From the IMG/VR virus record IMGVR_UViG_3300036715_000919: a DNA stretch of 64,000 nt; one strand, 5' to 3'. Under the pieces are notes generated by a model. It was not told where the DNA came from and made no database searches. It worked only from the letters and a program-made list of their open reading frames with translations. Shown piece by piece: positions 397 to 52,200 of this stretch. A program made the position numbers and the translations under genes. Every line of letters starts with the position of its first letter. Within the stretch, counting starts at the first letter, position 1. Origin of the DNA: an uncultured virus (IMG/VR IMGVR_UViG_3300036715_000919) (Duplodnaviria > Heunggongvirae > Uroviricota > Caudoviricetes).

Positions 397-954
397 ATGA
401 GCACACGCATCAACATCGACGCAGCAAGAGCAATTGCCATCATCAACAGCAGAACACCACTGTCACGTACACACGTAGGACAACAGGTGTTGCTCACTGT
501 ACAAGGCGCAGGAACATTTCAATCTGCTACACAGCAGGAAGCCAAGACTCCAGGCCAGAAGGCGTACTTCGACAAGTACATCCACAACCTGAAAGCCAAC
601 AGTACAGAGGCCATGAGCCGTCCAGAGAACAAAGCCATCTTCGCCGCAGCAATGAAAGCTGAAGCAGCAGGCAATGTGGATGAAGCATCTGAACTTTTCA
701 ATGAATACCTGAACAATGTACAGGTGAGCTTCAACGCCATCGCACGTCCGGGTGTACGCAAGTTCGAAGATGGAGACATGTGTACTGCACTTGTTGAAGA
801 GGCAGATACCAAGAGTGGCAACAGAGCCATCGTGGTGAACCAGGTGAAGTACAAGGCTCCAACAACTGTGGAGAAAGTGAAGTTCAGTATCACAGACCTG
901 TTGGGAGAAGAGGCACCAGTTGCCGTAGACAATGCAGCTGTAGTAACAGAGTAG
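397..954 (+). CDS. Hypothetical protein, first early gene (possible OB-fold/ssDNA-binding, acidic tail)
   Basis: Strongly coding-like codon usage from ATG 397 (MSTRINIDA...), beta-rich core and acidic C-terminus; function not recognised. Confidence 0.7.
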   Translation: MSTRINIDAARAIAIINSRTPLSRTHVGQQVLLTVQGAGTFQSATQQEAKTPGQKAYFDKYIHNLKANSTEAMSRPENKAIFAAAMKAEAAGNVDEASELFNEYLNNVQVSFNAIARPGVRKFEDGDMCTALVEEADTKSGNRAIVVNQVKYKAPTTVEKVKFSITDLLGEEAPVAVDNAAVVTE

Positions 955-1648
955 CATTCATCTGCTGTAGAGAATTGGAGGAGAAGTCGGTAATCCTTCA
1001 ATACACAGCAGGAGTCTTAACGTCAGGGCACACAGTCGAGAGATTGTGTGCTCTTTTTAACAGATCAATCGTTCAGGATAGATACACAGCGGGCTTCACA
1101 GAGATGTGGAGTCCATTTTTTCCAGGGTACGGAGTATACTACTCCTGCTGTAGAGAGTGAGAAGATGAGATCTGCTGGTGATCGAGAGGCGTGTCCTCAA
1201 TACACAGCAGGCAGGAGTGGTGCGGTAAGAGTTGGAACTGGTGCAGTACGCAATGAGAGGTGGTGCACTAACCCCTCTTTCTACGCAGCAGATGAATTTT
1301 TACTGGCCTCAGAATATACTAGTCAGAATTCCATACCTTAGTGAGATGAAACAAGAAGATGACAATGGGGTTGCACTGATCGGGATTGTCTGTGTATGGG
1401 TATTTGGAGCTTACGTGTTTGGTAGGGTAGTGCTGTGGTTAGTGAGCCTGATGTGAGGATCTATTTGAAATTTAATTTCAAGTGCTGATGCGTAAGTGAC
1501 TGAGTCTGTGGCTCTTCGAGCCTGGACCTACACATCCCTCTAACACCTATTCAATACTACCTCAGATACTACCCCACTATTCTCTCAACACATCTATCAC
1601 AGCTTCTATTCTTTCCCGTTATCCTACTATTCACTGAAACAGTAGCCG

Positions 1649-5716: not shown

Positions 5717-6070
5717 ATGGAACTGATACCAGCAGATGATACTATCAAATCCGAAGTAGTTATTCCTGCAAAGACAGAACATAAGTTCATCGGTACGCTT
5801 ACACCACATCCAGGGCACACCTGTTATCAGTTCAATCTTATAACTAAGAAGATTACGCTTGCTGTATTTGAAACAACCACTTCTAATCTGAGTGGAAAAA
5901 ACGGGCGTAAGCTTATCGTTCAACCTGACTGCATCTACTGTACTGCGTTGAATCCGAAGAATGCTATCAAGAGATTTTTCAAGATGCTGCAACTGAATGC
6001 GGCTATTCAAATGATTAAACCTAAAACCGATGAGAAAGATCTTAATCTCAGTAAAACAGAAACTCAATAA
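5717..6070 (+). CDS. Hypothetical protein
   Basis: Operon-packed ORF. Confidence 0.6.
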   Translation: MELIPADDTIKSEVVIPAKTEHKFIGTLTPHPGHTCYQFNLITKKITLAVFETTTSNLSGKNGRKLIVQPDCIYCTALNPKNAIKRFFKMLQLNAAIQMIKPKTDEKDLNLSKTETQ

Positions 6071-6536
6071 TGCTATTCAACGTAGTATATTGGTGAATTG
6101 TCCTCAAGGGCATCATGATTGGGGATTCTCCGTACAAGATAGGTGGAATAAGCCTAAAACAAGAAAAATAGCTAAGGTTCAAAGGATTTGCTATGAGTGC
6201 ATTCGAATTAGACAACGAAATAAAATGACTCGGGAAAAAGCCAAGGTGAAAAATGCCAGAGATAATAAAATTCGTAACCTTAAAATGAAAAGAGATCCTG
6301 AATATGCTCAAAAAATACGAACTTCATTTGTCAGAAGAAGTACTAATGCATGTAAAATTTTAAATGATGGTTATATCAGACAATACATAAGGAAAACTTT
6401 TGCTGAGAAGAGTTTAAAAGCTTTAGAGATACCAGATCAACTGGTGGAGATTACCAGATATTATTTACAACTAAATAGAACCTTTAATGACAAAAGCACA
6501 ATTAATAGGGAAGTCACAAGCCCAACACATCCGTGA
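6030..6536 (+). CDS. Basic hypothetical protein, Cys/His (Zn?) N-terminus
   Basis: CPQGH...CYEC and a Lys/Arg-rich helix. Confidence 0.55.
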   Translation: MRKILISVKQKLNNAIQRSILVNCPQGHHDWGFSVQDRWNKPKTRKIAKVQRICYECIRIRQRNKMTREKAKVKNARDNKIRNLKMKRDPEYAQKIRTSFVRRSTNACKILNDGYIRQYIRKTFAEKSLKALEIPDQLVEITRYYLQLNRTFNDKSTINREVTSPTHP

Positions 6537-6714
6537 AGTTTCATACCAAGATGGAATGAAGTATAGAGAACTGGCTTTGAAAACTGGAAGTAAAGATCAT
6601 GCAATGTTTGCGATTTTAAATTTCAGAATTTGGATTCGAGCTGCTGTAATAGATCTTATTGAGACTAAACAGTTAGCTTCTGGTACAGTGAAACCAATCA
6701 AACAATTAAAATGA
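6487..6714 (+). CDS. Hypothetical protein
   Basis: Overlapping operon ORF. Confidence 0.5.
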   Translation: MTKAQLIGKSQAQHIREVSYQDGMKYRELALKTGSKDHAMFAILNFRIWIRAAVIDLIETKQLASGTVKPIKQLK

Positions 6715-6920
6715 ACTGGAATCTATTTAATCCCACCGGCGTAACGGGAGGAGATGATGAAGATCTCCTCTACAGATCCGAAATCACTGGTCCACAGGGT
6801 GCCAGATATGAATTACTACGGGAGAAAACTCACATCCATGCTGACGTGGAAAAAGCTAAAAGGTATTTAAGAAGAAACTTTGATGTAGTGAGTATCCAAA
6901 TAATTCATGAAACTGATTAA
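6711..6920 (+). CDS. Hypothetical protein
   Basis: ATGA overlap with the upstream ORF. Confidence 0.55.
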   Translation: MNWNLFNPTGVTGGDDEDLLYRSEITGPQGARYELLREKTHIHADVEKAKRYLRRNFDVVSIQIIHETD

Positions 6921-6940
6921 CTTTGTAAATCAATCACAAC

Positions 6941-7570
6941 TCTGCGGGTAGGTGGATAACAAGATACCGGCCCCCATGCCAGGCTCACTGAAAGCAGTTT
7001 AAAATGTATCCATGATTGAATTTGTTGCAATGAGCCATGCTTTTACCTACGAAGACTAAGCAAACCTCAAGTGTCTGGGATGCTAAAACCTACCCAGTTA
7101 AACTATGAGTTTAGCTTAGCCAGTGGTTTTAAGACCAGTGTTCAAGGTGATGATGCCAGTACTATTGAGTTATCCCCTTAGATCAGAAATGAACCTATCG
7201 TAAAGGGCATACTTCACTTTATCCTGATTGAAGTTATCGTAAGATGGAGGTCAAAATGAGTTCTTTAAGGAGCAGTACCATATATGTAAGTGGTACGTCC
7301 CGGTAACGGCACAAACTGGAGCCGAAAGCAAAGTCGAGCATACCTCTTTGGATATGAGCAATCATTGAGAAAGTCGCTAAGCCTCGATCGGGTGCCCAAC
7401 GTTAGGGCCGCATGTACAAGAACGACGTAAGAGATTGGTGGATGTTAGTAGAAAACCGAGGCTGGCCAGCCGGAGTATCAAAAACATACACCTGCAAAAC
7501 GGGTGAGATCCGTACGTTGGTGAAAACTCTCTCAATGCCCGGTGTCCCAGTGATGGGTATCCGGGCACTA
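6941..7570 (+). ncRNA. Large structured noncoding RNA candidate (GOLLD/ROOL-like size and style)
   Basis: GC-richer gap without a credible ORF; many nested stems and GNRA-type loops; TAACTTTG -7 element at 6918-6925; strong terminal hairpin 7536-7568. Confidence 0.6.
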
Positions 7571-7855
7571 ACCACACACTTACTGTTCAAATCACACGTA
7601 AATTGGAAATTATCGTCCTTAATGTCACACCTATGCCATTCAGAAAAGCAATTGAAAGAGCACTTACTGAAATTCACCAAGTTCAAGCACTCAACATACA
7701 AGCCGCATAGAAATTCATCAATGCACGCAGACATCTTGAGGAGTTGTTTGCAAACGTTCAACCTCGCAGATCTCCTAATGTTTTGACGGATACGGAGATC
7801 ACTCGGCCTCTGGAGAAGAAGCTAAAGAGATAATTTATTCACCATTTAATTAACA

Positions 7856-8347
7856 TTGATGCAAACATTATTAAAATCTCACAATGCTTGTGAGGAGGCC
7901 AGAGAATGGGCCCTAAATAAATCCTGGAAACAAATCTTTAAAACTTGTCATAGAGGAGATTGGTTTCTATGGCTATTTAAAAAGACTAATCCAAATGACT
8001 TACAGTTACTGACTTTAGCAAAAGGACATTGCGCTAATACTGTTAGACATCTAATGAAAGATGCTCGAAGTATTAAAGCTGTTGATATTTCTATTGGTTT
8101 TGGGGAAGGTAAAAATACAAGAGAAGAACTTAGTGCTGCTGGTGCTGATGCTTATGCTGCTTATGCTGGTGCTGATGCTTATGCTGGTGCTGATGCTTAT
8201 GCTGCTTATGCTGCTGCTTATGCTGCTGATGCTTATGCTGCTATTTCTAATAGAGTAAATACTATGAAAGCCAATCAACTTTTAACAGCAAATATCTGTC
8301 GGCAATATTTACCGTTAGAAGTTTGGAACATACCTCAGGACTTATAA
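7856..8347 (+). CDS. Phage protein with Ala/Tyr/Asp low-complexity repeat
   Basis: 'ACEEAREWA...CHRGDWFLWL' followed by (AYA/ADA/AGA)n encoded by gct-rich tandem units ~8134-8242. Confidence 0.7.
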   Translation: MMQTLLKSHNACEEAREWALNKSWKQIFKTCHRGDWFLWLFKKTNPNDLQLLTLAKGHCANTVRHLMKDARSIKAVDISIGFGEGKNTREELSAAGADAYAAYAGADAYAGADAYAAYAAAYAADAYAAISNRVNTMKANQLLTANICRQYLPLEVWNIPQDL

Positions 8348-8419
8348 TCTATAATAGACGATAAGTTTTCTATAGAGGAGACCAAGAAAATAATTTACTT
8401 AATACTTAATTAACAATTA

Positions 8420-9631
8420 ATGGAATTTCCAACACTATACAAACGCACTAAGACAGGTGCGATACAACAATGGTCTGTCTTTGTCACAATTGGTTTAGCG
8501 GGAGCAATTATTATTAAAAGAGCAGGTCAACTTAATGGTACACTTACTGAACACAGAGAAGTAATATCTGTAGGTAAGAACATAGGTAAGAGTAATGAAA
8601 CCACTCCTTTACAGCAGGCAGAAGCACAGGCTCAATCTGACTGGACAAAAAAACATGATGAAGGATATAAGAGTTTAAATGATTTGGACATTGTATTATG
8701 TACTGATAAAATTCATTTTCCAGGATTGTATATGTATCCAGGATGTGGTATTATGTTTATGAATTTGGAGTATTCATTGAATCAAACTTTACCAAAATTT
8801 AATTCGGATGCTGCTGGAAATGCAAAACCGATGCTCGCGAAGCCCGTAGACTGGAAGAAGGTTACATACCCATGCTATGTGCAACCAAAACTGGATGGTG
8901 TACGGTGTTTGATGATTGTGAAATCATATCATCTTACAGCGGATATAACTTTTCTAAGTCGGAGTGGTAAAGAGTATACAACACTTAATCACATTAAAGA
9001 TGATGTTCTCAATTATATCGCCGGTAGTGAGCAAGAGTTTATTTTGGACGGGGAGATATATTCAGAAAATCTAAGTTTCCAGGAAATTGTATCTGCTGTA
9101 AAGAAGCAACGACCGGAGTCACTAAAACTTCACTTTCGTGCCTACGACATTGTAAATGATAAGAAGCAACATCAGCGCATTGAACAGGTTCGTGAATTAA
9201 TTGATCTAATTGATTCAAAGTATATCCAGTATGTAATCACAATTACAGCTGCTGTTAAAGATGATGTCACTCATCACCATGATAAGTGGGTATCTGAAGG
9301 AAATGAAGGCGCTATGATCAGACACTACAATGGTATCTATGGACAAGGCCAACGTTCATCTGACTTACTGAAAGTGAAAGAATTTGATGAGACTGAGTTT
9401 GAGTTCAAGTGTTTTGAACAAGGACAACGTGAAGAAGATCTCATTGCTGTATGTGAAACTCTTGAGAAGAAAGAGTTCCGTGCAAAGATGATTGGTAACA
9501 AACTATCTAAAGCTACAATGCAAACTGAGTGTGGTGAGCTTCTGGGTACTCAACTTACAGTGAAACATTTCGGTTGGACTACTGATGGTCTCCCACGTTT
9601 CCCGATTGGTAAATCATTTCGTGACTATTAA
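8420..9631 (+). CDS. ATP-dependent DNA ligase
   Basis: Motif I QPKLDGVR, LDGEIY, EGAMIR, LLKVK and C-terminal GLPRFP. Confidence 0.95.
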   Translation: MEFPTLYKRTKTGAIQQWSVFVTIGLAGAIIIKRAGQLNGTLTEHREVISVGKNIGKSNETTPLQQAEAQAQSDWTKKHDEGYKSLNDLDIVLCTDKIHFPGLYMYPGCGIMFMNLEYSLNQTLPKFNSDAAGNAKPMLAKPVDWKKVTYPCYVQPKLDGVRCLMIVKSYHLTADITFLSRSGKEYTTLNHIKDDVLNYIAGSEQEFILDGEIYSENLSFQEIVSAVKKQRPESLKLHFRAYDIVNDKKQHQRIEQVRELIDLIDSKYIQYVITITAAVKDDVTHHHDKWVSEGNEGAMIRHYNGIYGQGQRSSDLLKVKEFDETEFEFKCFEQGQREEDLIAVCETLEKKEFRAKMIGNKLSKATMQTECGELLGTQLTVKHFGWTTDGLPRFPIGKSFRDY

Positions 9632-10613
9632 TACGCAGCAGATGATACGATATGACATATACGATCAGCAACTCAATCCAGGTGACTTCATCTGCTGTAT
9701 AGTGAGAGGACAGTTCTCAGCAGCAAGGATAGCATCTATTAGTTTGAAAGGTACTATTCACATCAATCCCTGGAATGACCAGTCAAAGACATACCACAGC
9801 GTTGTAAGGCAACTGCGAGGATACAACATTATTAAAACAGCGGGGATGCCCGTACATCAATTTACTTTATTCAAAACAGATAATTATGCTGGCAAGAAAC
9901 TTTTGGAATCAGCTTAAAGAAATCATAGAACTCCCATTCGAATTGGAAAGTGTAACTGCTGTGTCCGGTAACTGTGGAACAGTACACATTGATATGGAAG
10001 ATGGAAGTACTTATTACATTGACATTCAAAAATGTGAGAGTGATGCCAGGGAATAAGAAGTACATGATATTCAGAAGTGAGGCATCTGGCCATCACTACA
10101 TATTCAATGGAGAGGATGTCATTGACTTCACCCCCAATCCCAAACAGACCTGGGATGGTCCTACTGAGAAAGTAGAAGAGGCGTTCAATAATGCCCGAAA
10201 GAAAGGTTTCATTACCAGCAGAGGCCGGCACATCGTAGTGTCCAGAGGGACATTCATAGACAACTAACTAAGGGGGGCAGTCAGTGTTTTTCAGAACTTA
10301 AACAATCTAAAACCATCCGTAACAGGGTGCAATGGATTATTGATATGGAGACGACGGGAGCTGACTGTTCCTCTTATTTTACACACTCAAAAACAAGAAC
10401 ACATGTGGGGATTATTTGAAAAGAAAGAAAGGAAAGAAGATGAATTTCTTGGAGCTGAGCACGCAGTGGTACCGATGAACTTTGAGAGTACCATTGAAGA
10501 AGTTAAGAAGTTAAGTCCAAAGGCACAGGCAACATTCCTGTATAAGCTGGTAGGCGCACTTCCACAAGGAGTTGCCAGGACATTACATAAATACACGTCA
10601 AACAGATTGAGCA

Positions 10614-11099
10614 ATGGTACGTATCCTAACATCAGACAGAAAGAGCGTAACCTTGATAGAAGTGTTACGCAGGGGGGTGGCCTCGACAGTTAGTCCCAAC
10701 TATTACAACACGCTGTACCAACGGTTCTCAAACATACGTATAGCAAAATTCTTAAAGACACATACTGAAGAACAGATTAGGGTTTATTTACAGACTCATC
10801 CGGAATTACACATCTATACAATCATTGACAATGAGCCACTTTTGTCTGCTGTTGATCAACAGCAGGTGGATGTTAATATCACAACGAGATCAAAGATAGC
10901 TGCCAGGCAACGGGTAAAGGATGAGGATGGAGATGACTACATTGATGAGTTCGGTCGGTATGTGTATATCACAAGTAGGATTGGTACAGAGGCAGATAAA
11001 GATTTGCGGTATGAGGATAAAGCCGATCCTGAATTATTCACAGTTCAATACATAGCAAATGAATTATCGCATAATAGAGACAGGCAGCACATTACCTGA
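10614..11099 (+). CDS. Hypothetical protein
   Basis: 161-aa ORF in a packed operon. Confidence 0.6.
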   Translation: MVRILTSDRKSVTLIEVLRRGVASTVSPNYYNTLYQRFSNIRIAKFLKTHTEEQIRVYLQTHPELHIYTIIDNEPLLSAVDQQQVDVNITTRSKIAARQRVKDEDGDDYIDEFGRYVYITSRIGTEADKDLRYEDKADPELFTVQYIANELSHNRDRQHIT

Positions 11100-11349
11100 T
11101 GTTATTCTTTATAGAGAATTCGACTCTGAAACCAATAATTGTGGAGAACAGGGTCATGTTGTAGTTATCTGTGCAATAGGTGCAATAGGTACAGTAGATC
11201 AACAAAATGAGGTTGAAGGACAAGAATATGAGTGGATTGAATTTCAATCTGCATCCTCAGCTAAGGCATTTATTCAATCTTATACAGTCGCTAACGCAAA
11301 GGCTTGGTGCACAGAAAAAAGGAATCACTTATTAATACACAGCAGATGA
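11059..11349 (+). CDS. Hypothetical protein
   Basis: Packed ORF. Confidence 0.5.
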   Translation: MNYRIIETGSTLPDVILYREFDSETNNCGEQGHVVVICAIGAIGTVDQQNEVEGQEYEWIEFQSASSAKAFIQSYTVANAKAWCTEKRNHLLIHSR

Positions 11350-11530
11350 TAAAGAAATTAAAATGGCTGTTCAGACCATATAAGTACGAAGTGATTTTAT
11401 TCTCCAGGTTCTCTCTCAATGGTTATAATGTAGTAAGAATAAACAGATACACTGGTATACAGAAAATACTGGATGCACAAGTACCCCTGAAGATAGCTGT
11501 AAATACTGCTAACCGTTTAAATACTCAAAC

Positions 11531-13723
11531 ATGATACATGTGATAGGAAATCCGACAGAGCAGTCTGCTAAATATCAAGCAGGAGATTGGAATCAGTTCA
11601 AGCCCTGGATACTGGAATTAGCAGAAGTTGAGTTTGATGTTGAGACCACCGTGAGTCCATGGTGGTCAGAGAAAAAACTCATCACTGTTCAATTTGGTTG
11701 GAATGGTACAGAGTGGGTATTCCAATGGAGTGAACTGTCTGTTGAGCAGAAAGATTGGATCAAACAGATTTTGGAAAGCAAACGTATCCTCAAACTCATA
11801 CACAATGCACTCTTTGAATGTACTGTCTGTCTCTTTCATGATATTCGTGTACAGAATGTATATGATACTATGTTGGCTGAAATGGTACTACAAGGAGGTG
11901 AGCACACAGTAGGCTATGGCCTGGATGACATTTGCTTAAAGAGATTGAACATTGTACTCGACAAGTCGCAACAATTGTTATTTGGGGACAACATTCTTAA
12001 TGAGGCTAAAGTGATTTATGCAGCCCAGGATGTGAAATATCTGAGTAACATTCGTCTCTCTATCCAGCAGGAGGCTCAGGCTAAGAACTATGAGACCTTA
12101 AACAAAGTGATAGAGTTGGAGAACAGCATTGTACCTGCTTTTGCAGAGATGGTGTTTCATGGAATGGAACTGGATAAGGAGTGGTGGTTAGGGCTTGCAA
12201 GAGAAGCTGAGCCCCTGGTATCCGCTGCACAGCAGAAGTTAAATGAGTGGTTACAACAGGAGCCATTCAGGACAGTAGCATATCAACTCAATTACCTCAG
12301 TGATAAAGATAGAGTACTGATTAACTGGAACAGTCCCAAGCAGAAGGAGAAACTCTTTCAGGATTTGTTTCCGGAGTTACCCGGTACCAGTAAGGCTGTA
12401 TTGAAGAAGTGGCAATCCACTCAACTCAAAGCACAACAGCCGGTACCTGAGTGGCTCCCCTATTACCTTGATGGTGATAGTACTGAAGTGTCCAAAGTGG
12501 TAGTCAATGAGCACAGGGATTACTTGATTGCTGAACAGCAGCTGATTCCTGCCGGCACGCCTACGATCAATTGGAATAGTACCTATCAGGTATTGCCGCT
12601 AATTCAATGTGTGGAACGTGTGAATGATTTGTCTGCTGAGAGTTTAGGTAGAACATCCCATCCAATTGTTGCAGACTATGAGGAGTACAAAGATACTGCT
12701 AAACTACTCTCATCTTTTGGAGAGAAGTGGATAGAAAAATATGTAGAGCCTGATGGAAAGGTTAGAACATCCTTTAGACAAATTCTCGCTACAGGAAGAA
12801 CTTCTTCATCTGGCCCCAACCTTCAGCAATTACCAAAGAACAAACGTGTAGGTAATAAATATCGTAATGCATTTATTCTTCCACCCAAATGGAAATGGGT
12901 ATCAACTGATTTTGTATCAGAAGAGTTGGTGATTGTTGCTTACTTATCACAAGAGACTGTATGGCTTGAAGCGTTATCTAAGGGATGCGACTTACACTCG
13001 AGTGTAGCTGAAGTTGTGTTCAAGAAGAAGTGGAAAGATGCCGCAACAAGTACATGTGAGTTTTATCATCCTCATGTAGATGATAAAGGTGTTTTGTGGC
13101 CTGCATATTCACGCAAGAAATGTAATTGCAATGCTCACAAATATCTTCGGGACGCTACTAAGACTGTGAATTTCATGTTAGTATATGGTGGGTCTCATTT
13201 CAAACTTGCATCAACATTACGCATTACAGTTCCTGAGGCACAGCAGATCATTGAAGATTATTTTAAAGCATTGCCGAAACTCAAAAAAGTACTGGATTAC
13301 TTAGGAGAATTTGGAATTACTAAAGGATACATTCAAACTATTTGGCCCTACTATAGGAGACGTTGGTTTCCTAATTGGCAATTCTACACAAGGTTCATTG
13401 ATGCTCATCTACAAAGTGCACAATTTCATGGTGGATTAGGTGAAATCGAAAGAGCCAGTAAAAACACCCCGGTTCAGGGTAGTGGGGGGGATATTCTTAA
13501 ACTCTCTATCAGAAATGTTTACAATTATATTCACGACAACGATCTGTCCTCTAAGGTTCATCTCAAAATGGAAGTACATGATTCACTTGATACAGCAGCT
13601 AAAGAAGAGTATGCTGAAGAGTGGAGTATTATCCAATCACGATTGATGGAAGATGCTGGTAGAGTATTGATACCGACTGGTATTTTAAAGACTGATACTA
13701 CACTTACAGTGCGTTGGTCTTAA
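11531..13723 (+). CDS. polA: DNA polymerase family A (3'-5' exonuclease + polymerase)
   Basis: Exo motifs FDVET, HNALFE, YAAQD; ATGRTSSSGPNLQQLP; motif A DFVSEEL; motif B RDATKTVNFMLVYG; NTPVQG; motif C VHDS. Confidence 0.95.
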   Translation: MIHVIGNPTEQSAKYQAGDWNQFKPWILELAEVEFDVETTVSPWWSEKKLITVQFGWNGTEWVFQWSELSVEQKDWIKQILESKRILKLIHNALFECTVCLFHDIRVQNVYDTMLAEMVLQGGEHTVGYGLDDICLKRLNIVLDKSQQLLFGDNILNEAKVIYAAQDVKYLSNIRLSIQQEAQAKNYETLNKVIELENSIVPAFAEMVFHGMELDKEWWLGLAREAEPLVSAAQQKLNEWLQQEPFRTVAYQLNYLSDKDRVLINWNSPKQKEKLFQDLFPELPGTSKAVLKKWQSTQLKAQQPVPEWLPYYLDGDSTEVSKVVVNEHRDYLIAEQQLIPAGTPTINWNSTYQVLPLIQCVERVNDLSAESLGRTSHPIVADYEEYKDTAKLLSSFGEKWIEKYVEPDGKVRTSFRQILATGRTSSSGPNLQQLPKNKRVGNKYRNAFILPPKWKWVSTDFVSEELVIVAYLSQETVWLEALSKGCDLHSSVAEVVFKKKWKDAATSTCEFYHPHVDDKGVLWPAYSRKKCNCNAHKYLRDATKTVNFMLVYGGSHFKLASTLRITVPEAQQIIEDYFKALPKLKKVLDYLGEFGITKGYIQTIWPYYRRRWFPNWQFYTRFIDAHLQSAQFHGGLGEIERASKNTPVQGSGGDILKLSIRNVYNYIHDNDLSSKVHLKMEVHDSLDTAAKEEYAEEWSIIQSRLMEDAGRVLIPTGILKTDTTLTVRWS

Positions 13724-14197: not shown

Positions 14198-14421
14198 TCA
14201 TTTCAATATCAGGAAAGATTGAATCTGTCTGTTGTAAGGAAAGCGGGAGGCATCACCATTCGAATCAACAGGGTATTTGCGAGACCGTTTAGTGAAAAAC
14301 ACTTGTAAAACATACTTCAGAAACATCATTAGATGATACTCAATTAGATCATGTGATCGACAACAAGACGATTGAAGAATTAGCACAGAAACTATTACCA
14401 ATCATATCAAATCTTAATTAA
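14194..14421 (+). pseudogene. Internally deleted, frameshifted dNMP kinase remnant
   Basis: N-terminal MIISISGKI (P-loop start), then in other frames VRKAGGITIRINR and HTSETSLDDTQLDHVIDNKTIEELAQKL, the C-terminal motifs of phage dNMP kinases. Confidence 0.65.
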
Positions 14422-14422
14422 A

Positions 14423-14866
14423 ATGGGTACAATCAAACAGCCGGGATGTAAGGATAAGTCCTACATCAAATTAAAGACAATGCATGAAGAATGCCGCTGC
14501 TGTGGCAAAGGTCGCGAATGGGTATGCGACAGTTGTAATGCTCTGCTTGACAGGGGACATGCATTCTTCATTGAGGTGAAAGATTCCTCAAACGAACAAC
14601 ACAAGAAGCCCACCGGCTATGCGATTGCATTCATTGCAAGAGAAGCCTATGAACACGGACATCCTGAAGTCACACTGACGCCAGGCATTTACTTCATCAG
14701 AGAGAGTGATCTCAAACAATTCTTAGGAGATGGATATAACAAATTTAATCATTCCGCCCGATCCGGAGCGCCAGGAAGATTCCTTCACAACGGTGCTGGA
14801 AGCCGCCCCCGCGTTAACAGCGGAGCAGCAGATAGTTCACGATCAGCTACTGAACTGGCTCATTGA
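14423..14866 (+). CDS. Hypothetical Cys-containing protein
   Basis: CRCCG...CDSC; the 3' end overlaps the helicase. Confidence 0.5.
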   Translation: MGTIKQPGCKDKSYIKLKTMHEECRCCGKGREWVCDSCNALLDRGHAFFIEVKDSSNEQHKKPTGYAIAFIAREAYEHGHPEVTLTPGIYFIRESDLKQFLGDGYNKFNHSARSGAPGRFLHNGAGSRPRVNSGAADSSRSATELAH

Positions 14867-17155
14867 TAAGACGAATAAAAAACCAGCAGTCTTTAAAGGA
14901 TTTGCCGGTGTCGGTAAGAGTTTCACACTGACGTACTTTGTACAATCTGTACGTAAGATTTACTCTACTATCTACAATATAGGCATGACAGCGCCAACAC
15001 ACAAGGCTGTTAAAGTGCTCCGTAAGAATGCTATCCTTTCCGTGGACTACCGCACTCTTCACAGTATGCTTGCTCTCAGGGAGCAGATTAATGAATACAC
15101 AGGGGAAATCACTTATGAACCAGAGAAGTTTTCTGCTGTTCCACCGCCAATTACTGATATTAATCTGCTGATAGTTGATGAAACGTCAATGCTCACAGAT
15201 CAGTTATTTAATTATCTGGTGCCATGGATCAAGAAAGGGCTCAAGGTAATATTTACCGGTAGATAAGATTGCCGGTATAAAATCTTTCTAATTGCTGGAA
15301 ACTCTTGAAGAGGTAGCAACCACAACGCAGAGCCAAAGCTCAATCGTGAGGGTTTGAAAATGCTACTTTATAAGACAATCAGCAGCGAAGCCTCTTTAAT
15401 ATGAGGAACGTTCAACGACTATCCCGAAAGGGAGTAGGGACAACTGTCCCGAAACGGAAGAATCTAATAATCATTAACTCTAAAATTATGACAAGAACAA
15501 TTTTAAGGCACTCAGCAAAGGTTAGAGAGTTGATGACAAAATCTACAGAATTATACAAACAAGGAAATCCTAATCATTTCTACGTTTATCAACACCGTAT
15601 TGGACATAGTATATTCTATGTTGGTATGGGCTCCCATGATAGAGCAGTTCGTGTTGCCGGACGTTCAGCGGCTTGGAATAACCTTGCAGATCTTGAACAA
15701 ATCAATGTGATAATAATTTCAAATCTTACCAGCTGCGAGAAAGCTGATATTATTGAGAAACAGCAGATTCAAATTTTTGATAAGGCAGTGAATACTCAAC
15801 ATTCCTTTGATAGAGGACATTGCTTTGATCCCATACTTCAATTCTCGAGAGACGGAGAGTTGAGGGCTAAATATTTGAGCGCAACAGATGCGCAGTTATT
15901 AGGATTTAGTAATGGGTGTATTAGGGCGTGTTGTGATGGAACAAGAGGACTTCATAAGAATTTTATTTGGATGTATCAGAGTGATTATAACAAATTTGGT
16001 TTCCGACATACTGTCAAGCCAAATGAAGTTAAACTTATACAGCAGGTATCATTAGATGGGCAAGTCATCAGAGAACTTTCACCAGCATCTGCTTTTAATC
16101 AATTTGGATTTACAACTAAGAATGTACAACAAGTTTGTACAGGACAAAAGAAATCACATGGAGGTTTTAGATTTAAGTATGTAGAAAATTAGATAAGATA
16201 TAGTCTGATCTTACCAGTAATGGTAAGTTAACAAGAAATGGATCCATTTCAGGTGCCGCCTGTGAAGCATGAAGACTGTATTCCATTCAGAAACTCAGTT
16301 GCCTGGGATTTGCCTACATGGCAACTCTCCAATATCATGCGGCAGAAAGAGGGTAATCCAATTATTGAGTTTGTAACCCTCATCAGGGACAACCCATTTG
16401 AAGAACACTATGATCCTAAAGAACACCTGCTGGATAATGGGACAGGGATCAGTCTTGTGGATGAAGGCAGCCAGAGAGAATCGGCATTGCTTAAAGAATT
16501 ATTCACTGATCAGGCATTCAAGAAAGACTCTGACTTCATGAAAGTGATAGCCTGGAGAAATGCTACTGTGAATAAGTACAATGACATCATCCGGTCAATC
16601 ATCTATCCTCAGCATGAACACCTGCTGAGGATTATGCAAGGTGAGAAGCTCATCATGGAAAAGCCGTATGTCATCAATCCGCGATCGTTGCTTACAAAGA
16701 ACGATGAGATAGAAGTGAAAACTGTCTCCACTCTTAACAAGCAGATCACCTGGACAGATGCTTATGGAATCTTTGACAATGCTAACTTCAAATTCTACCA
16801 GGTAGGCATTGAATGGTACACAGAGAGGGGCATGAAGCAGGGACACATCCCGATTATTCATGATGACTCTCTACCAGCTTTCGCTAAGCTGATTGACAGC
16901 CTGAAACAGATGGCCCTTTCAGCACCGGCAGACAAGCGCAGCCGGATGTGGAGGCAGTACTATAAGACCATCGGTGAATCCGCATGGACTAAGTACAACT
17001 ACTCTATAACCACACATTTGTCTCAGGGAAGTACTTATAAACAGTCAATCGTCCTGCAGTGGGACATATTAGCTAACAAGAAAGTGAGCGAACGTAACAG
17101 GATACTGTATACAGCCTGTACGAGAGCTTCTGACACATTATTTATTGAAGCATAA
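14730..17155 (+). CDS. Dda/RecD-like SF1B helicase, spliced: exon 1 14730-15260, exon 2 16241-17155 (481 aa)
   Basis: Walker A GFAGVGKS, TAPTHKA, DETSM; splicing restores IFTG|DPFQVPPV (GDxxQxPPV); TTHLSQGSTY and YTACTRA. Confidence 0.9.
15261..16240 (+). mobile_element. Group I intron (IA2-type)
   Basis: P1: exon ACCGGU pairs with IGS GCCGGU (U.G); P AATTGCTGGAA; Q AATCAGCAG; R GTTCAACGACTA; P7.1/P7.2 hairpins; S AAGATATAGTCT; P9 CTTACCA-GTAA-TGGTAAG; terminal G at 16240. Confidence 0.93.
15488..16192 (+). CDS. Intron-encoded GIY-YIG homing endonuclease with two NUMOD1-type repeats
   Basis: FYVY...FYVGMG...R; two 'Q.S.DG..+..+.S......I...C.G......F.+.Y' repeats; lies in the P8 loop (ATCTAAT...ATTAGAT). 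Confidence 0.85.
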   Translation: MTRTILRHSAKVRELMTKSTELYKQGNPNHFYVYQHRIGHSIFYVGMGSHDRAVRVAGRSAAWNNLADLEQINVIIISNLTSCEKADIIEKQQIQIFDKAVNTQHSFDRGHCFDPILQFSRDGELRAKYLSATDAQLLGFSNGCIRACCDGTRGLHKNFIWMYQSDYNKFGFRHTVKPNEVKLIQQVSLDGQVIRELSPASAFNQFGFTTKNVQQVCTGQKKSHGGFRFKYVEN

Positions 17156-43245: not shown

Positions 43246-46200
43246 CTATTGAAGTGCATCCAGGTCCTTGTTGGCCATGTAAATGCTCTTGTTGATGAGC
43301 GTCGTCTGCGGAATTGGGATACCAGCTTTGGTCATTTTCAGTGCCCACTTTCCAAATGTGTAATCATCGTCAATTATCAGCCTCATGGTAGCGCCAATGG
43401 CTTTACCATAGTCTGTTAACACTGAGGTAGCAGGGATGACATTCTTGGTTACAGATTCAAACACACCCGGAGAAGCATAGAAGTCAATATCCTGTTTACC
43501 ACGGATAAGCATATTGAGTAGCACTTGTGTGGTGTAAGCACTCTTCTTGTCATCATCTCCTGCATTGAGATGTTTGAGCATAGCGATGGAGCCTGCGAGT
43601 ACCAGGAAGTAACCGAGTTCAGATAAGTTCTTCCTCATATTTTCTGTATCCACACTTTCTTCATCTGTCAGTAGCTTACCACCAATGGTAGTGATACCAC
43701 TGAAAGGATTGACTTTTACTCCCGGTAGCAGGCCTATGAGCTGTCTTCCCATTACCATGGCATACCCACCGATACCGATCTGATTATCCAGATTAAAGAA
43801 GGAACGGTAACGTCCTTTTACTGCACGACCCAGGTTCTCATCAAAGCGTTCATCCTGGAACCTATTATACCATCCCTCAGGTAACCAGCTTGCTCTGAAC
43901 TGACCAAGCAGTCTACCCAGAATTGTTTTGTTGATCATCTTGGGAGCATTCTTATCCTGGTTACCGTGTAGGATTACATTCACACGGATAGCCTTATTAC
44001 GAAACTTGTCCCATTTCGTCTGCTGTTTAGCAGAAGTACCACTAACCCAATCCTCACTTGGTCCGTGTTTAGCACTGTCATAGTAACCATTTTCATCCAG
44101 GCTATCCCAAATAGATAACTCAGGAGTGATCTTATCGTGCATAGCCATGGCCACAGTAGTAACTCCTTTCATGAAGAAATCAGTCTCCCGCATCATACCG
44201 AAAGGATCAGCTATCTTCTTCCAGGTAGATTTGTTATCACGGAACTCAGGTGCCTTACCATATTTGGATTCAACGTAATCTCCAATGATACCGGCTCTAT
44301 CCATCATACCCATCACTTTTGTAGCCAGCTTCTTATCAAAGAGTGCCCTGGTCATCAGAGTACGAGCAGCAGCAACGTGTGCATGGGTAAAGTCCCTTCC
44401 TCCAGCAGCATGAATGCTGATGGAGATAAGTCCAAAGGTTACGTTCGCCACAGCAGAGAATGGGTTATAAGAGAGTGCCTTCAGTTGATTGATACCGATT
44501 AGTTTGTCACCGATCTTCGAACCATACATAGTGAAGCCTTCGTACTTACCAAGCTGCTGGTTGATAGGCTCAATGGCAGCTCCGTACTCTTCCTCTGTCA
44601 GTTCTCCTGTTCTGAACTTCTCTTCCAGTTCTTCCCGTTGAGCAGTCAGTTTTTTCACATCCCGTGTCATCTTGATATGCTTGATAAGATTGAGAGAAAA
44701 CTTACTTCCCTTTCCGGTATTCTTAGAGTACAGTTTGCTATTGGTGTTACCCTCCAGTTCCTTTGGTTTGCGGAACATAGAGTAATCCTTTAGGTACTTC
44801 AGTGCATCCAACGTATTACGTAATCCCTTCTGTACTGTAACAACTTTACCATTCTGTTCCATTTGGGTAGAGCCTTCAATCTGAGCTCTATTCACTTCTT
44901 TGAGAATAGTTTCTCCCATATCAATGTAATCTTTGGCAGCAGAAAAATGTTTGTAGTGAATGGCCATCATTGCAAACAGGCGTCCTATACCAATCAGGTC
45001 CTTGCTTCTATCCTCAAGAACTAACTTATTAGCATTTACAAAGTCAATCGGTATCTTATCAAAGGCACGGTCACTCATCTGTTCTTCCCAGCCGGTAGCA
45101 GTTATACTGCGTACAAACTTTTCATTGAAAGTCTTCACCCAATCTACTACATTGAACATGTTAGCCATCACCTCTTTCCTTACAGCAGGTAGAAAGTCAG
45201 CACCTTGCCTGTCTTGTACTGCTTTAGGCATATAAGAAAGAAACTCATCTATCATATTTTTGTAGTCGTTGTAAAATTGGCTTACTTTAGAATCTTCCAT
45301 CAATCCTTTGTAATCGTCATTCCACAATTCTTTACTGCTTAACTTGGGAGCCATAGCAATATACTCTTCTGTAGCTTCAGAGAAAGAACGTGCGCTGTTG
45401 TTACGGTCGAAGAATACATTGGGACTGTGCTTATTCTGCCACTCCTTCTTCATTACCTCAGCTTCTTCTGCTGTATGCTCATGCAGGACAACGCGTTCAT
45501 CCAGTACATCAAAATGTGTGTTCTTATCTTCAATATACTTCAGGTAACGTTCCTGAGCTCTTGCAAGTAATATCTCTACGTGGTCAGCCCCTACATGTAT
45601 GGCCAATTCTTCCCGTGCACCTGGGTTATCAATCAACTCTCCTGTCGTGGGATTGAAGAAGCGGCGGGTGTCAACGAAGACAGCTTTCTTATCTACCTCC
45701 TTCCAGAAAGCTTTCCAGGCTGCTTTCTTAGGTCCAATAGCGCCGACAGTATCATTGCCAAAGTTCTTCTCAATATCGGCAATAGTTGCATTACGTTTGG
45801 CAATGATGGAGCGTCTCCATTCAAACCATTCCTTACTATACTGCATAGTCAAACCCAAAGATTTGGCACTGGTTTGAGTCATCTTATTATACAATGCTTC
45901 CAGTCCCTTCTTTCCACCTGTATGAGCAAGCATGTTTTTCTCCAGTTTGTTGAGTTTCTGCATCGCCTCATAACACTCCTCATCTCTTTGACGGGCTGTA
46001 GTTTCAATAAAATTAGCCACATGAGAAGTCACTGTACTCTTAGCTGCTGAAGAGAGTGAGCGTAGTAGCTTCTGATCCATACTAATGTCTTCTACCTGTT
46101 CAAAGTCTTTGGTACTGCGAATCACTCCAGCACTCACATCTACCATATAGTCTTTGCCTTTACTCAGTAACCTATGTACAAAGTTACCAGACTGGTTAGC

Positions 46201-49200
46201 CAACTGAGATAGTTCGGGATCAACACTCGTGGCACTATCACCATACAGCAGCTCAACTATGCCTCTCCACATCTGAGCGATGCGTACAGCATTCATGATC
46301 TCATTTTCATTGGGCTTCTCCTTAGCGTCTATACGGGCAACCCACTGCAGATGTTTCTTTCCAATTTCACTCACCTGCATTAGATCCTGGCTATCCGCCA
46401 GTTTCTTAATATCCTCTTCAATCTCTTTAATCTTATACCGTTTATCTAACCGTGATCTGTTGTCAGTTACTCCGGTGTAGGAGTTAATGAGATCCTGTTT
46501 TTGCTCAGTAAGTTTACCGATCACTTTGTCAATGGCTGAGATTTCTTTAGTATTGATACTTGCATTGCTTAGATCACTGAACAGTTCAGTTGAACTCATT
46601 ACACTGGCAGGAGCTCTCAATACCATATCGTGTGTTAGCAGATCCAAAGTACGCTTAACACTGGTCTCAGCGAGTGTACCATTCTGTACTCCCAGTGCAG
46701 TCTGCAATGCATTCCACACTTTGGCAAACAGGTCCTTGATCTTATTCAGCAGACTGGTTTTGTCCTCAGATTTAATTGAATTGAGGAAAGTAATCGTTCT
46801 GCTGTCAGAAAGAATATGGGAGACAAACTCAGTAGCATTGTTCAATGAATAGTACAGTTTACCATATTCAGTATCATGATCCGTTTTCAGCAGTTCAAAG
46901 TACTCACTGCCAAATTTGGTAACTACTCTTTTCCTCAATTCAGCCATAGCTTCCTTCCTTGCATCTTCTACAGCAGATAATTTCTGTTGCAGTTCAGGAT
47001 GTCCATCAATGAATGCCTTAGCTTCACGTAACTTAGCCAGGGTACGGGAATTGACTCCCCGTGCGGCCCAACTGGCTTCGCCTTCCATAGCCATAGTCAT
47101 CAGAGCTGTGTGGTAGTGAATGTTCTCATGAATGATGTTAGCTGCCAGTAGTTGTTTGTTACCAATTCCTGGAATAGAGAAAGTCATTTTGTTACTACCA
47201 GAGTTAAATGTAGCTGCTGTACCAGATGGAAGAGAACTGAACTCATAGCTGAAAGCCCTATTCATTCCAAACACATTTTCATAGGCAAACGCTTCAGCCG
47301 GGTTACGCTGCATGTTACCCAGTACTTCAGCCATAGCACGGATGTGCGCTGGTTGACCTCCGTCTCGGGCAATGACACTCATAGAGTTGATTATATCTTG
47401 CAGACCCCCAGTCTCTTTAGTGATACCTACTTGACGCATGGCAATAGTATGAGCACCAGCAGTTGTAAGACTATCCATCACACTGTTGCTTAGCTTTCGG
47501 TACTCAGGACTGATGTGTTCAAACCAGGGAGCACGGTTATCGGCCACAACTGAGCGTAAACCTTTCTGATCTACCTGTCCGGCAGACTCTGCATATTCAC
47601 TGAGCTGCAGTTTGCTGTCTCCTAGTGTGTCGATGCGTGCAAACAGTGGCTTAGCCGTTCCAGGTACCATCCCCATATTCTTGTACAGGTACCACTTGTT
47701 CTCTTTTCTGTAAGAGAGGTATGTTGGGTAATCTGTGAATTTCTTTCCATCATCTGTAGTCATGGTTACTGCCAGAGCAGCTGCAAGATTACCTGTATTA
47801 TCATCTGCGTTGTATATAGGCAATGCGAATGTATCCGGAGCTATAGCTGGTTTTCCGATCTCATCCAATTCAGCAGACAACTGCCGGGCGAGATGTGGAT
47901 TGTGCTGAAAGATCTGTTCTACCAGAGCTTCACTATCATTGAACTTACTGATCTCATTGAACTGTTCCCGCAGACCGAAAGCAATCTGACTTCCCTCAAT
48001 GGTTGCCCATGGAATGTACTTGATGAAGTTCCTGGTTCCCTGTAAGCCTCCGATGAGGTAGTTGTATCTCACCATATCAAATCCCAGAGCTTTCTTCACA
48101 GGATCTTCAGAGGTAAGCATAGTTAGCCACGCCTTTGAATTTTCCACATCATCGGCCATACTGGCCTTGGATGCATTGTACTCAATCATATCAGGACGTA
48201 CACCGTTAGGATCAATGTCTGTCTGTAACCTCTGTAACAAATAATCATTTTTTCCCCAGGTACTCTTAGCTGAAAGTAATCTCTGTGCTAAGCTAAGATT
48301 ACTTCCATGAGAGAAAAGTAATCTTACCCGTTCAGTATAGGCATCACTGTAGAGACCAAGTTTCTTGGAATTGAAAGCAAAGGACTTCATAGCATTGAAG
48401 ACAAGTTTCTTCTGCTCATTATTCAATCCATCCTTACCCGCTAATTCCATCACACTGTTGTAAGACTTTTGAAGAGCCTTGTACGGAAGTTCAGGACTAT
48501 AGAGATCCAGTGCTGTATTCACAGTACTGTCATAAGTCACACCCACTTCAGTGAGACCATTCTTCTTGTTACCAAACACCTGCTGTGTATTAGAGAGGAA
48601 CTTCTCACTGGTAGTATTTGGCTTGGCACGTTTCTCAACTGTGTTCAGCACACCCAGCATATCTTTGCCGGCACCACGGGTATCCTGTGCCATAGTAGAC
48701 TGCAAGGTTACCAACTGTGAGCCTATGTCATCAAATTGTTTAAAGAGTTTCAATGCGGCCTGCTGTAAGGTATTGAACTCAGTAGTACCAGGTTTTAGTT
48801 TCAATGCTTCCCGCATCTTCTCTGGATTAAGTAGTACTTCATCTACCTTCTCCCAGTCAACATCAGTTTCATATTTAGTGGTCAGATCAATGAATACCTT
48901 ATCTTTCACCTTGCTTTCAAAATTCACACTCAATGTATCATTAGCAGTACTTAATGCAGCAGAGAATTCCCTCACTATTGGCTGCATCAACAGCAAGGCG
49001 TTGTATTCCAGGTTGATTGATTTACCGGGTACAAAGTCAGCTTCTCCTGGTGTACCCTGATCTGCTGTTTGCAAACGGGACATGGCCAGTGAAGCAGCAG
49101 ACGTATTCGGGTCCAAATTGATCTTATCAATTACACGGTTCTTGGCGTGATCCACAGACTCACTTTGTTGTATCTGTACGTTATCAGACTTTGTCCGACG

Positions 49201-52200
49201 TTCCCCCTTGTAAGTAGTCTCACCGAAGCCAGACAGCTCGCTCAGGTGTAAGGGGTTACCTTCTTCATCAGCTACAGTGATAGCTGTAGACTGTGTATAC
49301 TTACCGGCTTCCTCAACTACCCATTCAGCCAATCCTACTGTACTGGTTTGTAATACAGCGTTACTGGTAAGGGCCAATGAGGTTTGACCTACAAGTACCT
49401 TGGCGCCTTTCATACTCTGGAAGTCACTCAGTTGGTAAGTGGGAGAGAAGTAGTACGGCACTTTTCCTTCAGCGGGTGAAAGTTCATCCGCCATATCTTT
49501 CAGGTCATTCTTATCCAATGGGCTCATGATGGAATCCAGCATTTCCGGATTGGTCAGTGTACTCCAGTGAACATCGAAGTAGTCATTATCCAATCCTTCA
49601 GCAGCTGAGAGTTTTCCTCCGTCTGCTGTATAAGATCTGTGGTAAGTGTAGAGCTTATCCACATCGAAGTCAGCTCCCATTTGCTTGGTAATACCAGCGG
49701 GTACCACAATCATGTCGCCCATGTTTTGAGGAAGGAAGCCAACGATTTCGATTGGAAGCATGGAGCTATGCCCCTGATTAGGAATACGAGCACCTACCAG
49801 TTGAAAGAGTTCCGGTGGCATCTTTTCTGTATCCAGCATCTTCTTATTATCCACTTCTTTGATGAAGTCTTGTATGTTTAATCTGCTGTCAGAAAAATAG
49901 TTAAAGCCTACGAGTACCTGAGCTGGAACTACAGCACCATCCTCCCCAATATGAGCAGTCTTCAGATTACCATCGAACGGCTTGGTCCATACTATCTGGC
50001 TGCGGTCAAGGTTGCTATCTTCCCATGTAGCCAGTGTCCTGAACCCGGCAGGTGAAGCCTGAATAAATGAATGGCCTGGCATCTTGATTTTGACGATCTT
50101 TTTTACCATAGACATCATCATTCCTTCGAATTTACTGAATGAAGGGGTGAATGCCAGTGGCACCACAAGTTCATCTTGTCCTTCCATGTAACTGGTAAGT
50201 GCCAGCAGATCATTGACAGTGTAACCATCACGATCTTTGGCTTCCTTAGCCAGCAGGTTGTAGAATTTCTTCTTATCCTTGAAGCGTATAACATCCTTGT
50301 CAACATCATAGATAGCTCCAACCTTATCCAGGAACTTAGCGTGAGACTGTGTAATGAGTTGCTTGCGTATGTCTTCTTTGATTTGTCTTAATTCAGCACC
50401 GCTTTTCTCCTTACCACGGTATATGAACTTCTTCTGTATTGTAGGTATTTTTTCAGTGATGTTCTTGTTCATCTGGCTCACAGTCAGGATAGCATCCTTA
50501 TCTTCATCGTAAGGATTGTCCTGCTGACGACCATTGAATTCTCTGGGTATGTACTGCCTGGAATCAGCGATCCAATCAGTTGTAGTGAAAGTATCATCTC
50601 TCACCTTACCATTATCGTCAAATAGTTTGAGAATTTTAACCGGTCCTCCCATTTTCTTAGCAGAAATGAAATTCAATCTGTCAATACCAGTTTCAGGATG
50701 CTCCATTGCAATTCTCAATTTGTCCAGTTCCAATCCTTCAATGAATGGTGGATAAAGTGGAAATGCCGATGCTTTAGTATAAGTATAGGGCATCATTCCT
50801 TCCATTGGTGGCATTAATCCAGCCTCAACATTCTTTCTTGGTTGTAGAATGATAGATTCAAGATCAGGTCCAAAGTTGTAGAACTTGCCATTAGCTTTTG
50901 TAATAATTCCAATAGCCTTATTGTACTGCTCCTGTGTAACATCCCCATAGGTACGGGCATCATTTAAGTACTCACGCATTGTCCAAATTTCCTGTGCATC
51001 TGTAGCATTAGCTGGTTTTTTGTAAGAAGGTATCTGACTTAATTCGTGTATCACTGGTTCCCAGTCTTCTGCTGTAACAGATGTATATCCAGGACTATGG
51101 CTTGTATCTCCATCCTTACGTGGAGCAATATCTTTAGCTAAACGTTTACCATATTCAATCAGCGTCGCATTAAGAACCTCGTCATGTTTACCTGTAAGTA
51201 CATTTTCTTCTCTATCTGTAGTTCCTTTTGGAGCTTTAAATGCATTGGCAGGGTCACCATAGAATAACTGGCTTAATCCGGTATTGAACAGGAATGAGTT
51301 CAGTGTGTAGTCTGCGGCGGCCAGATCAATATGTAATTTCTGAACCAATTCATCAGGTACTCTTTCTTCACCATCCATCCACACGAACTTGTTACCTTCT
51401 TTAGCCTGGCTCAATCCTATTCCTTTTAGCAGACCATTGTAGTACCATTTACTTCCTGGCAGTCCGGCTTTAATCAATTTACTATCAGTCCAGCTCTGTT
51501 TGGTAGCCTCAATCATTTCATTCAGCTGACGGGCGATGAGCTTCTTAGCTGTAGCCTCAAAAAGTACATTGTCCTGATTATTCAATACCCATTGTCCATC
51601 TTTGCCCTGATTCCAGATAGCTTTCATCTCACCCTCAGTAAGCTTTCTTTCTTTAACAGCAGACGACATCTGCTGGTGATTGAAAGCGGGGAATAGATAG
51701 AAGTACTTCTTGCCATTAGCATAGTTACGGATGTTCTCACCTCCAGGTTGAATGGCACGCTGATGTTCACTCAGGAATACACTTCTGTACATCGTGTCCA
51801 ATACTGTATCTGAGATATAGAGTTTACCATTCTTGCGTACTCTGGTGTCAGCGAGACGGGGGGCATTCATGAACACAGGTGTCTTGGTTTTATCTGAATG
51901 TGTCAATGAAACCATGTGCCCTGTCTCACGACCACTGTTCTGAAATAGTCCCAGTAGTGTCAGCCATTGTTCGCGATCGCTCATGTCAGGCCGGGTAACA
52001 CCATCGCGTGAACCATAGCGGTTCTTTAGTCCATCCAGATACACCAATTCGAATTTACTCAGTACACTGGGATTCAGTGCAGAGAGTAACCAACTGTTTT
52101 TGGCAAAGTAACTATTCTGAAATGACTGTCTGTAAGCTTCATCTTCTTTAAACTTCCTCACTGCATGGGATACAGCAGAATTTAATCCGAAGCTGTAGAT

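Follow-up and report, generated by a model that had tools for sequence, protein, structure and literature searches.

The closest described counterparts of the locus examined here are the ROOL and GOLLD RNAs, which, in the passages of a preprint on which we draw, are encoded in prophages and phages and lie "often near tRNA islands", a setting that is typical of them and not obligatory (bioRxiv 10.1101/2024.12.08.627333). Measured against that partial account, the candidate resembles them in being large, phage-borne, of unknown function and, judging from its sequence, noncoding, and it differs from them in that no tRNA island lies near it. It also matches neither of the two Rfam models. ROOL and GOLLD are families with a conserved multi-pseudoknot secondary structure, defined by covariation over many members, whereas the candidate has no known relative, and they measure 570 to 800 nt or more, whereas the part of the candidate that bears a signal is a core of about 390 nt.

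Three further comparisons can be made. The group I introns of the lineage belong to the same phage group and lie on the same strand as the candidate, and one of them, the intron of the related phage L014, comes close to the core in its density of GNRA-capped hairpins (2.14 and 2.05 per 100 nt, respectively); unlike these introns, the candidate interrupts no gene and has no homing-endonuclease ORF. In the related phage L014 a tmRNA occupies a gap of about 680 nt, free of genes, in what is the same variable early block, and the candidate differs from this tmRNA in having no match to RF00023, no ARAGORN call, no T-arm and no sequence similarity to L014. With orphan noncoding inserts between phage genes the candidate shares its confinement to one lineage, the presence of other content at the same spot in relatives, and an ability to fold that is accompanied by no conservation to show function, but it is larger than these (0.7–0.9 kb) and has an excess of GNRA loops beyond all controls.

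The window, that is, the whole 64,000-nt stretch of DNA that was analysed, derives from an uncultured tailed phage of microbial-mat and sediment metagenomes. Its + strand carries a block of small genes followed by the replication genes, which include, besides the ligase and polymerase genes of Table 1, a Dda-like helicase, other helicases, a primase and RIIA, and its structural genes lie on the - strand. Open reading frames (ORFs) of at least 60 aa cover 88.5% of the window, and all three stop codons are used in it, with no stop-codon recoding. Among the structural genes is a giant ORF for a virion protein of 4693 aa (43246–57330, - strand), the sole match of which is phrog_16227 (virion structural protein, E 7.5e-36), so that the label 'N4-like' is unsupported; the two ORFs that come after it, of 1758 and 459 aa, fall in no family.

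No gap between plausible genes of the window is larger than that from 6921 to 7858, which measures 938 nt, and it is within this gap that the original prediction placed a large noncoding RNA of many stems. We find that the stretch is an orphan noncoding insert in the variable (hyperplastic) early-gene block of the phage, and we put the probability that it is, or is left over from, a structured RNA element at roughly 0.4.

Table 1. Positions in the window of the candidate, its predicted stems and hairpins, and the genes and open frames around it.
Feature	Position	Strand	Remarks
Candidate as first proposed	6941–7570	+	listed stems present; stem number at chance
Core	7180–7570	+	richer in G+C and GNRA loops; only part with above-chance signal
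Upstream neighbour, complete 69-aa gene	6711–6920	+	conserved small-protein family, function unknown
Downstream neighbour, complete gene	7859–8347	+	Ala/Tyr/Asp-rich repeats
'-7 element' TAACTTTG	6918–6925	+	chance match
Stem GTAGGT/ACCTAC	6948–6953 / 7045–7050		
Stem GGCTCA/TGAGCC	6982–6987 / 7031–7036		
Stem CTAAGCAAACCTCA/TGAGTTTAGCTTAG	7056–7069 / 7106–7119		
Stem GTACCA/TGGTAC	7275–7280 / 7291–7296		
Hairpin CCG-GTAA-CGG	7300–7309		
Stem TTGAGAAAG/CTCTCTCAA	7365–7373 / 7527–7535		8 of 9 pairs
Stem CCTCG/CGAGG	7382–7386 / 7457–7461		
Stem CCAACGT/ACGTTGG	7396–7402 / 7514–7520		
Stem TGCCCGG/CCGGGCA	7536–7542 / 7561–7567		
Terminal hairpin	7536–7567	+	7 bp, 3x3 internal loop, 4 bp, GTGA loop
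Long-range domain	7363–7537	+	closed by inverted repeat 7363–7374/7526–7537
Hairpin TCA-GAAA-TGA	7183–7192	+	in minimum-energy fold; closing-pair probability 0.83
Hairpin TTATC-GTAA-GATGG	7234–7247	+	in minimum-energy fold; probability 0.60
Hairpin ATGA-GCAA-TCAT	7354–7365	+	in minimum-energy fold; probability 0.66
ORF of 124 codons, judged spurious	7412–7786	+	no homologue, no family
Open frame of 108 codons	7507–7833	+	in-frame TAG at 7708–7710; no start codon before 7603
Segment of 1111 nt	6513–7623		flanked by GTCACA direct repeats, 6513–6518 and 7624–7629
ATP-dependent ligase	8420–9631	+	
Family-A DNA polymerase (polA)	11531–13723	+	
Group I intron splitting the Dda-like helicase gene	15251–15548	+	Rfam 52.2 bits

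The genes on either side of the gap are intact. The family of the upstream gene has 51 representatives at E ≤ 1e-3 (12 at E ≤ 1e-10), the homologues are about 62–95 aa long, their C-terminal ends coincide with its own in the alignment, and the coding score of its frame is positive. For the downstream gene, locus L021 provides a stand-alone homologue of 171 aa with an N-terminus of its own. Insertion of an intron was ruled out on these two grounds, and because both neighbouring genes are complete, with no exons to join, 6921–7858 is not an intron. The 69-aa family, for which there is no Pfam model, has four residues that are invariant in 22 sequences (G30, H41, A49 and D58), and its domain also occurs within longer proteins of up to 296 aa. 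The downstream gene contains an Ala/Tyr/Asp-rich tandem repeat (8130–8245) the length of which varies between samples, with insertions of 27, 21 and 6 nt as well as substitutions; assemblies break at this repeat, and many contigs continue from it into unlike sequence.

All of the stems that had been listed for the candidate are found in the sequence. Counting perfect stems with loops of 3–120 nt within 6941–7570, we obtain 14 of at least 6 bp, against 11.5 ± 3.4 in 1000 dinucleotide shuffles (254 of which reach 14) and 15.8 ± 4.1 in 206 windows of 630 nt taken elsewhere in this phage (of which 145 reach 14), and 5 of at least 7 bp, against 2.9 in the shuffles (162 of 1000); chance alone yields as many stems from 630 nt of a phage whose G+C content is 41%. 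The predicted fold of 6921–7580 (660 nt) has a z of -2.40 on the + strand and -2.10 on the - strand (20 shuffles each), and six coding controls of the same length give -0.71, -1.56, -0.18, -1.47, +0.94 and -3.12. Six 200-nt windows inside the candidate average -0.95, versus -0.81 outside it, and of the 154 running means over six windows, 56 are no higher than that of the candidate. Folded by itself, the core (7170–7580) has a z of -0.76, with 25 of 100 shuffles folding equally well, and there is no strand asymmetry in fold energy for either range. The same predicted fold of 6921–7580 includes the inverted repeat that closes the long-range domain, which is 12 nt long and 92% complementary.

A '-7 element' had been reported immediately upstream of the candidate. 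The window has 51 occurrences of TANNTTTG, where 57.2 ± 6.7 would be expected, so that the element carries no weight. No promoter or terminator delimiting a transcript was found, and the terminator scan gives no + strand terminator-like site inside the gap. The hairpin at 7536–7567, an inverted repeat with a pairing probability of 0.93, is followed by no T-run and is absent from the list produced by the terminator scan. Of the proposal of a large multi-stem noncoding RNA, the noncoding part stands as far as can be told, and the evidence that was offered for it, the stems and the -7 element, does not, being at the level of chance.

A different property of the core does exceed its controls. On the + strand of 6921–7602 there are eight mini-hairpins of at least 3 bp capped by GNRA, every one of them within 7180–7570, and on the - strand there are none; dinucleotide shuffles contain 1.37 ± 1.12, and 0 of 2000 reach eight. 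This density is the highest of all 682-nt windows in the 64 kb on either strand. GNRA loops cap 8 of the 36 tetraloop hairpins (8 of 25 within the core), compared with 3.9% window-wide, a difference with a binomial P of 5.7e-5 that is optimistic, the test having been devised after two such loops were noticed among the listed hairpins. In the minimum-energy fold four of the six tetraloops are GNRA, against a maximum of two in 25 shuffles and two in 36 sense-strand control windows, and in the predicted ensemble four of the eight GNRA hairpins have a probability of about 0. The G+C content of the core is 0.471, that of the window 0.412, the mean of the genes 0.398 and that of most intergenic gaps 0.28–0.41.

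The count was calibrated on 10,580 overlapping windows of 400 nt (273,512 bases, both strands) taken from this phage and from unrelated loci. Windows that reach seven GNRA hairpins occur in two places only, the core and the group I intron of L014, which is confirmed by Rfam and has six such hairpins in 280 nt. Other true RNAs have one (the intron of the window), two (the intron of L013) and one (the tmRNA of L014), and GNRA density is thus no general mark of RNA.

It is quite possible, all the same, that the stretch is a functionless spacer, debris that gene decay or illegitimate recombination left in a hyperplastic region and that is passively transcribed, with a GNRA excess that arose by chance or was inherited from the source DNA. 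The ordinary fold energy and stem counts suit this explanation, as does the restriction of the stretch to one phage population with no relatives found. Its carriers are two IMG/VR contigs and contigs of four DNA runs, with 0 differences among them; no RNA runs are among the sequencing runs listed as carriers, all four being DNA contig runs, possibly of the source samples. In the nearest diverged relatives, with polA 68%, 62% and 43% identical, the region is either not reached or absent. In L014, the relative at 62%, which is a complete 91-kb record with terminal repeats, the DUF6011 gene stands directly before the homologue of window gene 9974–10267, so that the whole block 5717–9970 is missing, and its complete genome has no match to the stretch. 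At three loci with homologues of the 69-aa gene (L029–L031) the next gene follows immediately, with no gap.

Searches for relatives by other routes gave a consistent result. There is no similar DNA in GenBank phages (distant mode) or plasmids. Synteny in IMG/VR by way of the ligase, polA, the 168-aa and 163-aa neighbours and the 69-aa family leads only to near-identical contigs that carry the stretch, the 162-aa neighbour leads to no relative of it in JGI metagenomes, and the 56 matches to a pattern for the 69-aa family in GTDB genomes include none. Against all other loci, blastn and nhmmer return only matches of 12–35 nt (E ≥ 0.014), and the whole records of five relatives only chance matches of 15–19 nt. 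Three purine/pyrimidine-degenerate patterns find only the two contigs of the same phage in IMG/VR, one degenerate pattern has 0 matches in GTDB genomes, and the window contains no paralogue of the stretch.

A possible natural deletion between 6-nt direct repeats would also agree with a functionless spacer. One low-depth contig in one DNA run joins 6512 to 7624, at a depth of 3.8, with a shorter side of 30 letters and 6 letters shared, a joint that is weak in that its side length is at the caution limit and that a left contig break at 6498 and a downstream depth of 8.3 fit it poorly. Contigs of the same run break near both ends of the segment, and if the joint is real, the candidate and the two small genes preceding it may be missing from part of the population. 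The patchy, weakly coding-like scores, which fall in different frames (7041–7190, and 7520–7700 upstream of any start codon), and the in-frame TAG, which gives 7507–7833 the look of a gene relic, are what decaying DNA might leave. Such a spacer would nevertheless have to account for a GNRA excess that is strand-specific and beyond every control, and for a core with G+C above the genome mean in a phage whose neutral spacers are A+T-rich; the lack of coding-like composition in any frame of 7190–7500 argues against a recently decayed gene of this phage, and the proteins that adjoin the 69-aa homologues in L029–L031 have left no trace in the candidate. Even as debris the stretch would be a useful caution, its loop-class bias alone having exceeded the controls.

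The overlapping ORFs had been regarded as spurious, and the data agree: ORF 7412–7786 has no homologue, no match in Pfam or PHROGs and a coding score of -3.5 to -9 in its own frame, so that the ORF, the interval of which the original prediction had singled out for such a check, has no coding signal. None of the 14 stop-to-stop pieces of the gap that were tested matches Pfam or PHROGs better than E 0.029, no frame of 7160–7500 has a coding signal, and homologues of three open frames in the gap were searched for and none was found. As far as can be told, then, the stretch is noncoding. Of the two frames with weakly coding-like composition, the first contains a 36-codon ORF and the second belongs to the open frame 7507–7833, for which no homologue turned up with the TAG read as X and which may be a gene relic or a micro-ORF of 25–35 aa.

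These same frames, at 7071–7181 (36 aa) and 7603–7710 (35 aa), provide the weakly positive coding scores that would be expected of a cluster of very small protein genes overlooked by gene callers, and tiny genes abound in the early parts of phage genomes. We consider such a cluster improbable, given that the open frames of 53 and 108 aa have no homologues or family match, that most of what scores positively in the second frame precedes the first codon at which it could start, and that about 320 nt (7182–7500) are left without any candidate.

Less probable again is an element that acts as DNA, whether an origin of replication, a single-strand initiation site or clustered hairpin promoters. Such an element could be noncoding and hold many short hairpins with stable loops, and a place ahead of the replication genes (the ligase gene at 8420 and polA at 11531) would befit it, but the stretch has no iterons, significant direct repeats or A+T-rich tract, the cumulative GC skew shows no turn, the hairpins share no sequence past their loop class, and a DNA cruciform would not explain GNRA loops on one strand only unless one strand is the active form.

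With regard to known RNA families, the suggestion that the candidate might be GOLLD or ROOL fails in the all-Rfam scans and the single-family searches alike, with no match at E ≤ 10. In the all-Rfam scan of the window the helicase intron alone reaches its gathering score, and at E ≤ 10 the candidate and its surroundings return just snoRNA, miRNA and lncRNA noise far below threshold. All-Rfam E-values are multiplied by 4227 families, and single-family searches were therefore added on the public record with the identical stretch. With GOLLD (RF02032, gathering score 150 bits) there was no match at E ≤ 10, three candidates being scored, and with ROOL (RF03087, 574 positions, gathering score 99.1 bits) again none at E ≤ 10, one candidate being scored in a search in which 14 control genomes were equally empty and which had no positive control. 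A group I intron was ruled out with RF00028, which has no match in the candidate though the same model finds the helicase intron, and a profile built from the three group I introns of the lineage likewise finds nothing in it. Group II introns were ruled out with RF00029 and RF01998 (D1D4-1), neither of which gives a match at E ≤ 10, and by the negative all-Rfam scans. A tmRNA was ruled out by the absence of a match to RF00023, of an ARAGORN call and of any T-arm-like hairpin on the + strand of 6800–7900; over the whole 64 kb, ARAGORN calls neither a tRNA nor a tmRNA.

Least probable of all is a member of one of these families (GOLLD, ROOL, group I or II intron, tmRNA) that has diverged past recognition by its model, an idea to which the size of the stretch, the group I introns of the lineage (in the window, L014 and L013), the tmRNA of L014 and the equal GNRA density of the L014 intron lend some colour, but which runs counter to the lack of any match at E ≤ 10 in all-family or single-family searches, to the silence of ARAGORN and of the lineage-intron profile, to the missing T-arm, and to the completeness of the neighbouring genes, which leaves no exons to join. 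The core appears to belong to no known RNA family.

The introns themselves are variously placed. The split Dda-like helicase gene of the window spans 14730–17155 (+ strand), with exons at 14730–15266 and 16238–17155, and an ORF at 15401–16192 that comes after its intron has a NUMOD domain of the I-HmuI type. The L014 intron (14321–14600, 84.7 bits) lies just past the helicase homologue of that phage, and the L013 intron (12067–12363, 78.7 bits) lies elsewhere in its locus.

Returning to the reading that we prefer, that of a structured RNA element or its remnant, the gap lies between two + strand genes and has no + strand terminator-like site inside it, and for these reasons it would most likely be transcribed within the rightward message. 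The 3' core, from about 7180 to 7570, would most likely be, or once have been, a compactly folded RNA, in which an array of small GNRA-capped hairpins is tied together by long-range helices such as 7363–7374/7526–7537 and ended by the hairpin at 7536–7567. GNRA loops in known RNAs dock into helices or receptors, and from such docking we infer that a self-contained folded module is the likeliest form, not a base-pairing regulator. The module might serve as a scaffold or a decoy, or it might lie ahead of gene 7859–8347 as a stabilising structure. If the core is truly a folded RNA, it would be a further family, one without relatives, among the few large phage RNAs that have no known role.

The genome of L014 also speaks for an RNA at this place. 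Its variable early block contains the tmRNA (6469–6930, Rfam 69.5 bits, not called by ARAGORN) and a tRNA (2386–2459, anticodon unassigned), from which it follows that RNA genes travel in that slot. A more specific proposal, which we offer tentatively and regard as rather unlikely, is that 7180–7570 represents a new class of structured RNA carried by phages, about 400 nt long and seen here for the first time, in which GNRA hairpins would be locked into a compact tertiary or multimeric particle, like ROOL and GOLLD in kind and unrelated to them in sequence, and which would occupy the same exchangeable early slot as the tmRNA of the related phage. A core that is a real folded RNA would also show that the variable early block of this phage group swaps RNA genes (tmRNA, tRNA and the core) as well as small protein genes.

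Two other loci contain six GNRA-capped mini-hairpins each, L007 at 10151–10550 and L015 at 10951–11350, both on the + strand and both with no Rfam match at the gathering score. In the window itself, a gene-free region at 950–1340 (+ strand, G+C 0.483) has no match in Rfam, is closed by a 19-nt inverted repeat (956–974/1279–1297), and contains three copies of TCAATACACAGCAGG and two of CTGCTGTAGAGA, in addition to two hairpins followed by T-runs. Its predicted fold has a z of -4.14, with 0 of 100 shuffles as good, and on thermodynamic grounds it is a stronger candidate for a structured element than 6941–7570.
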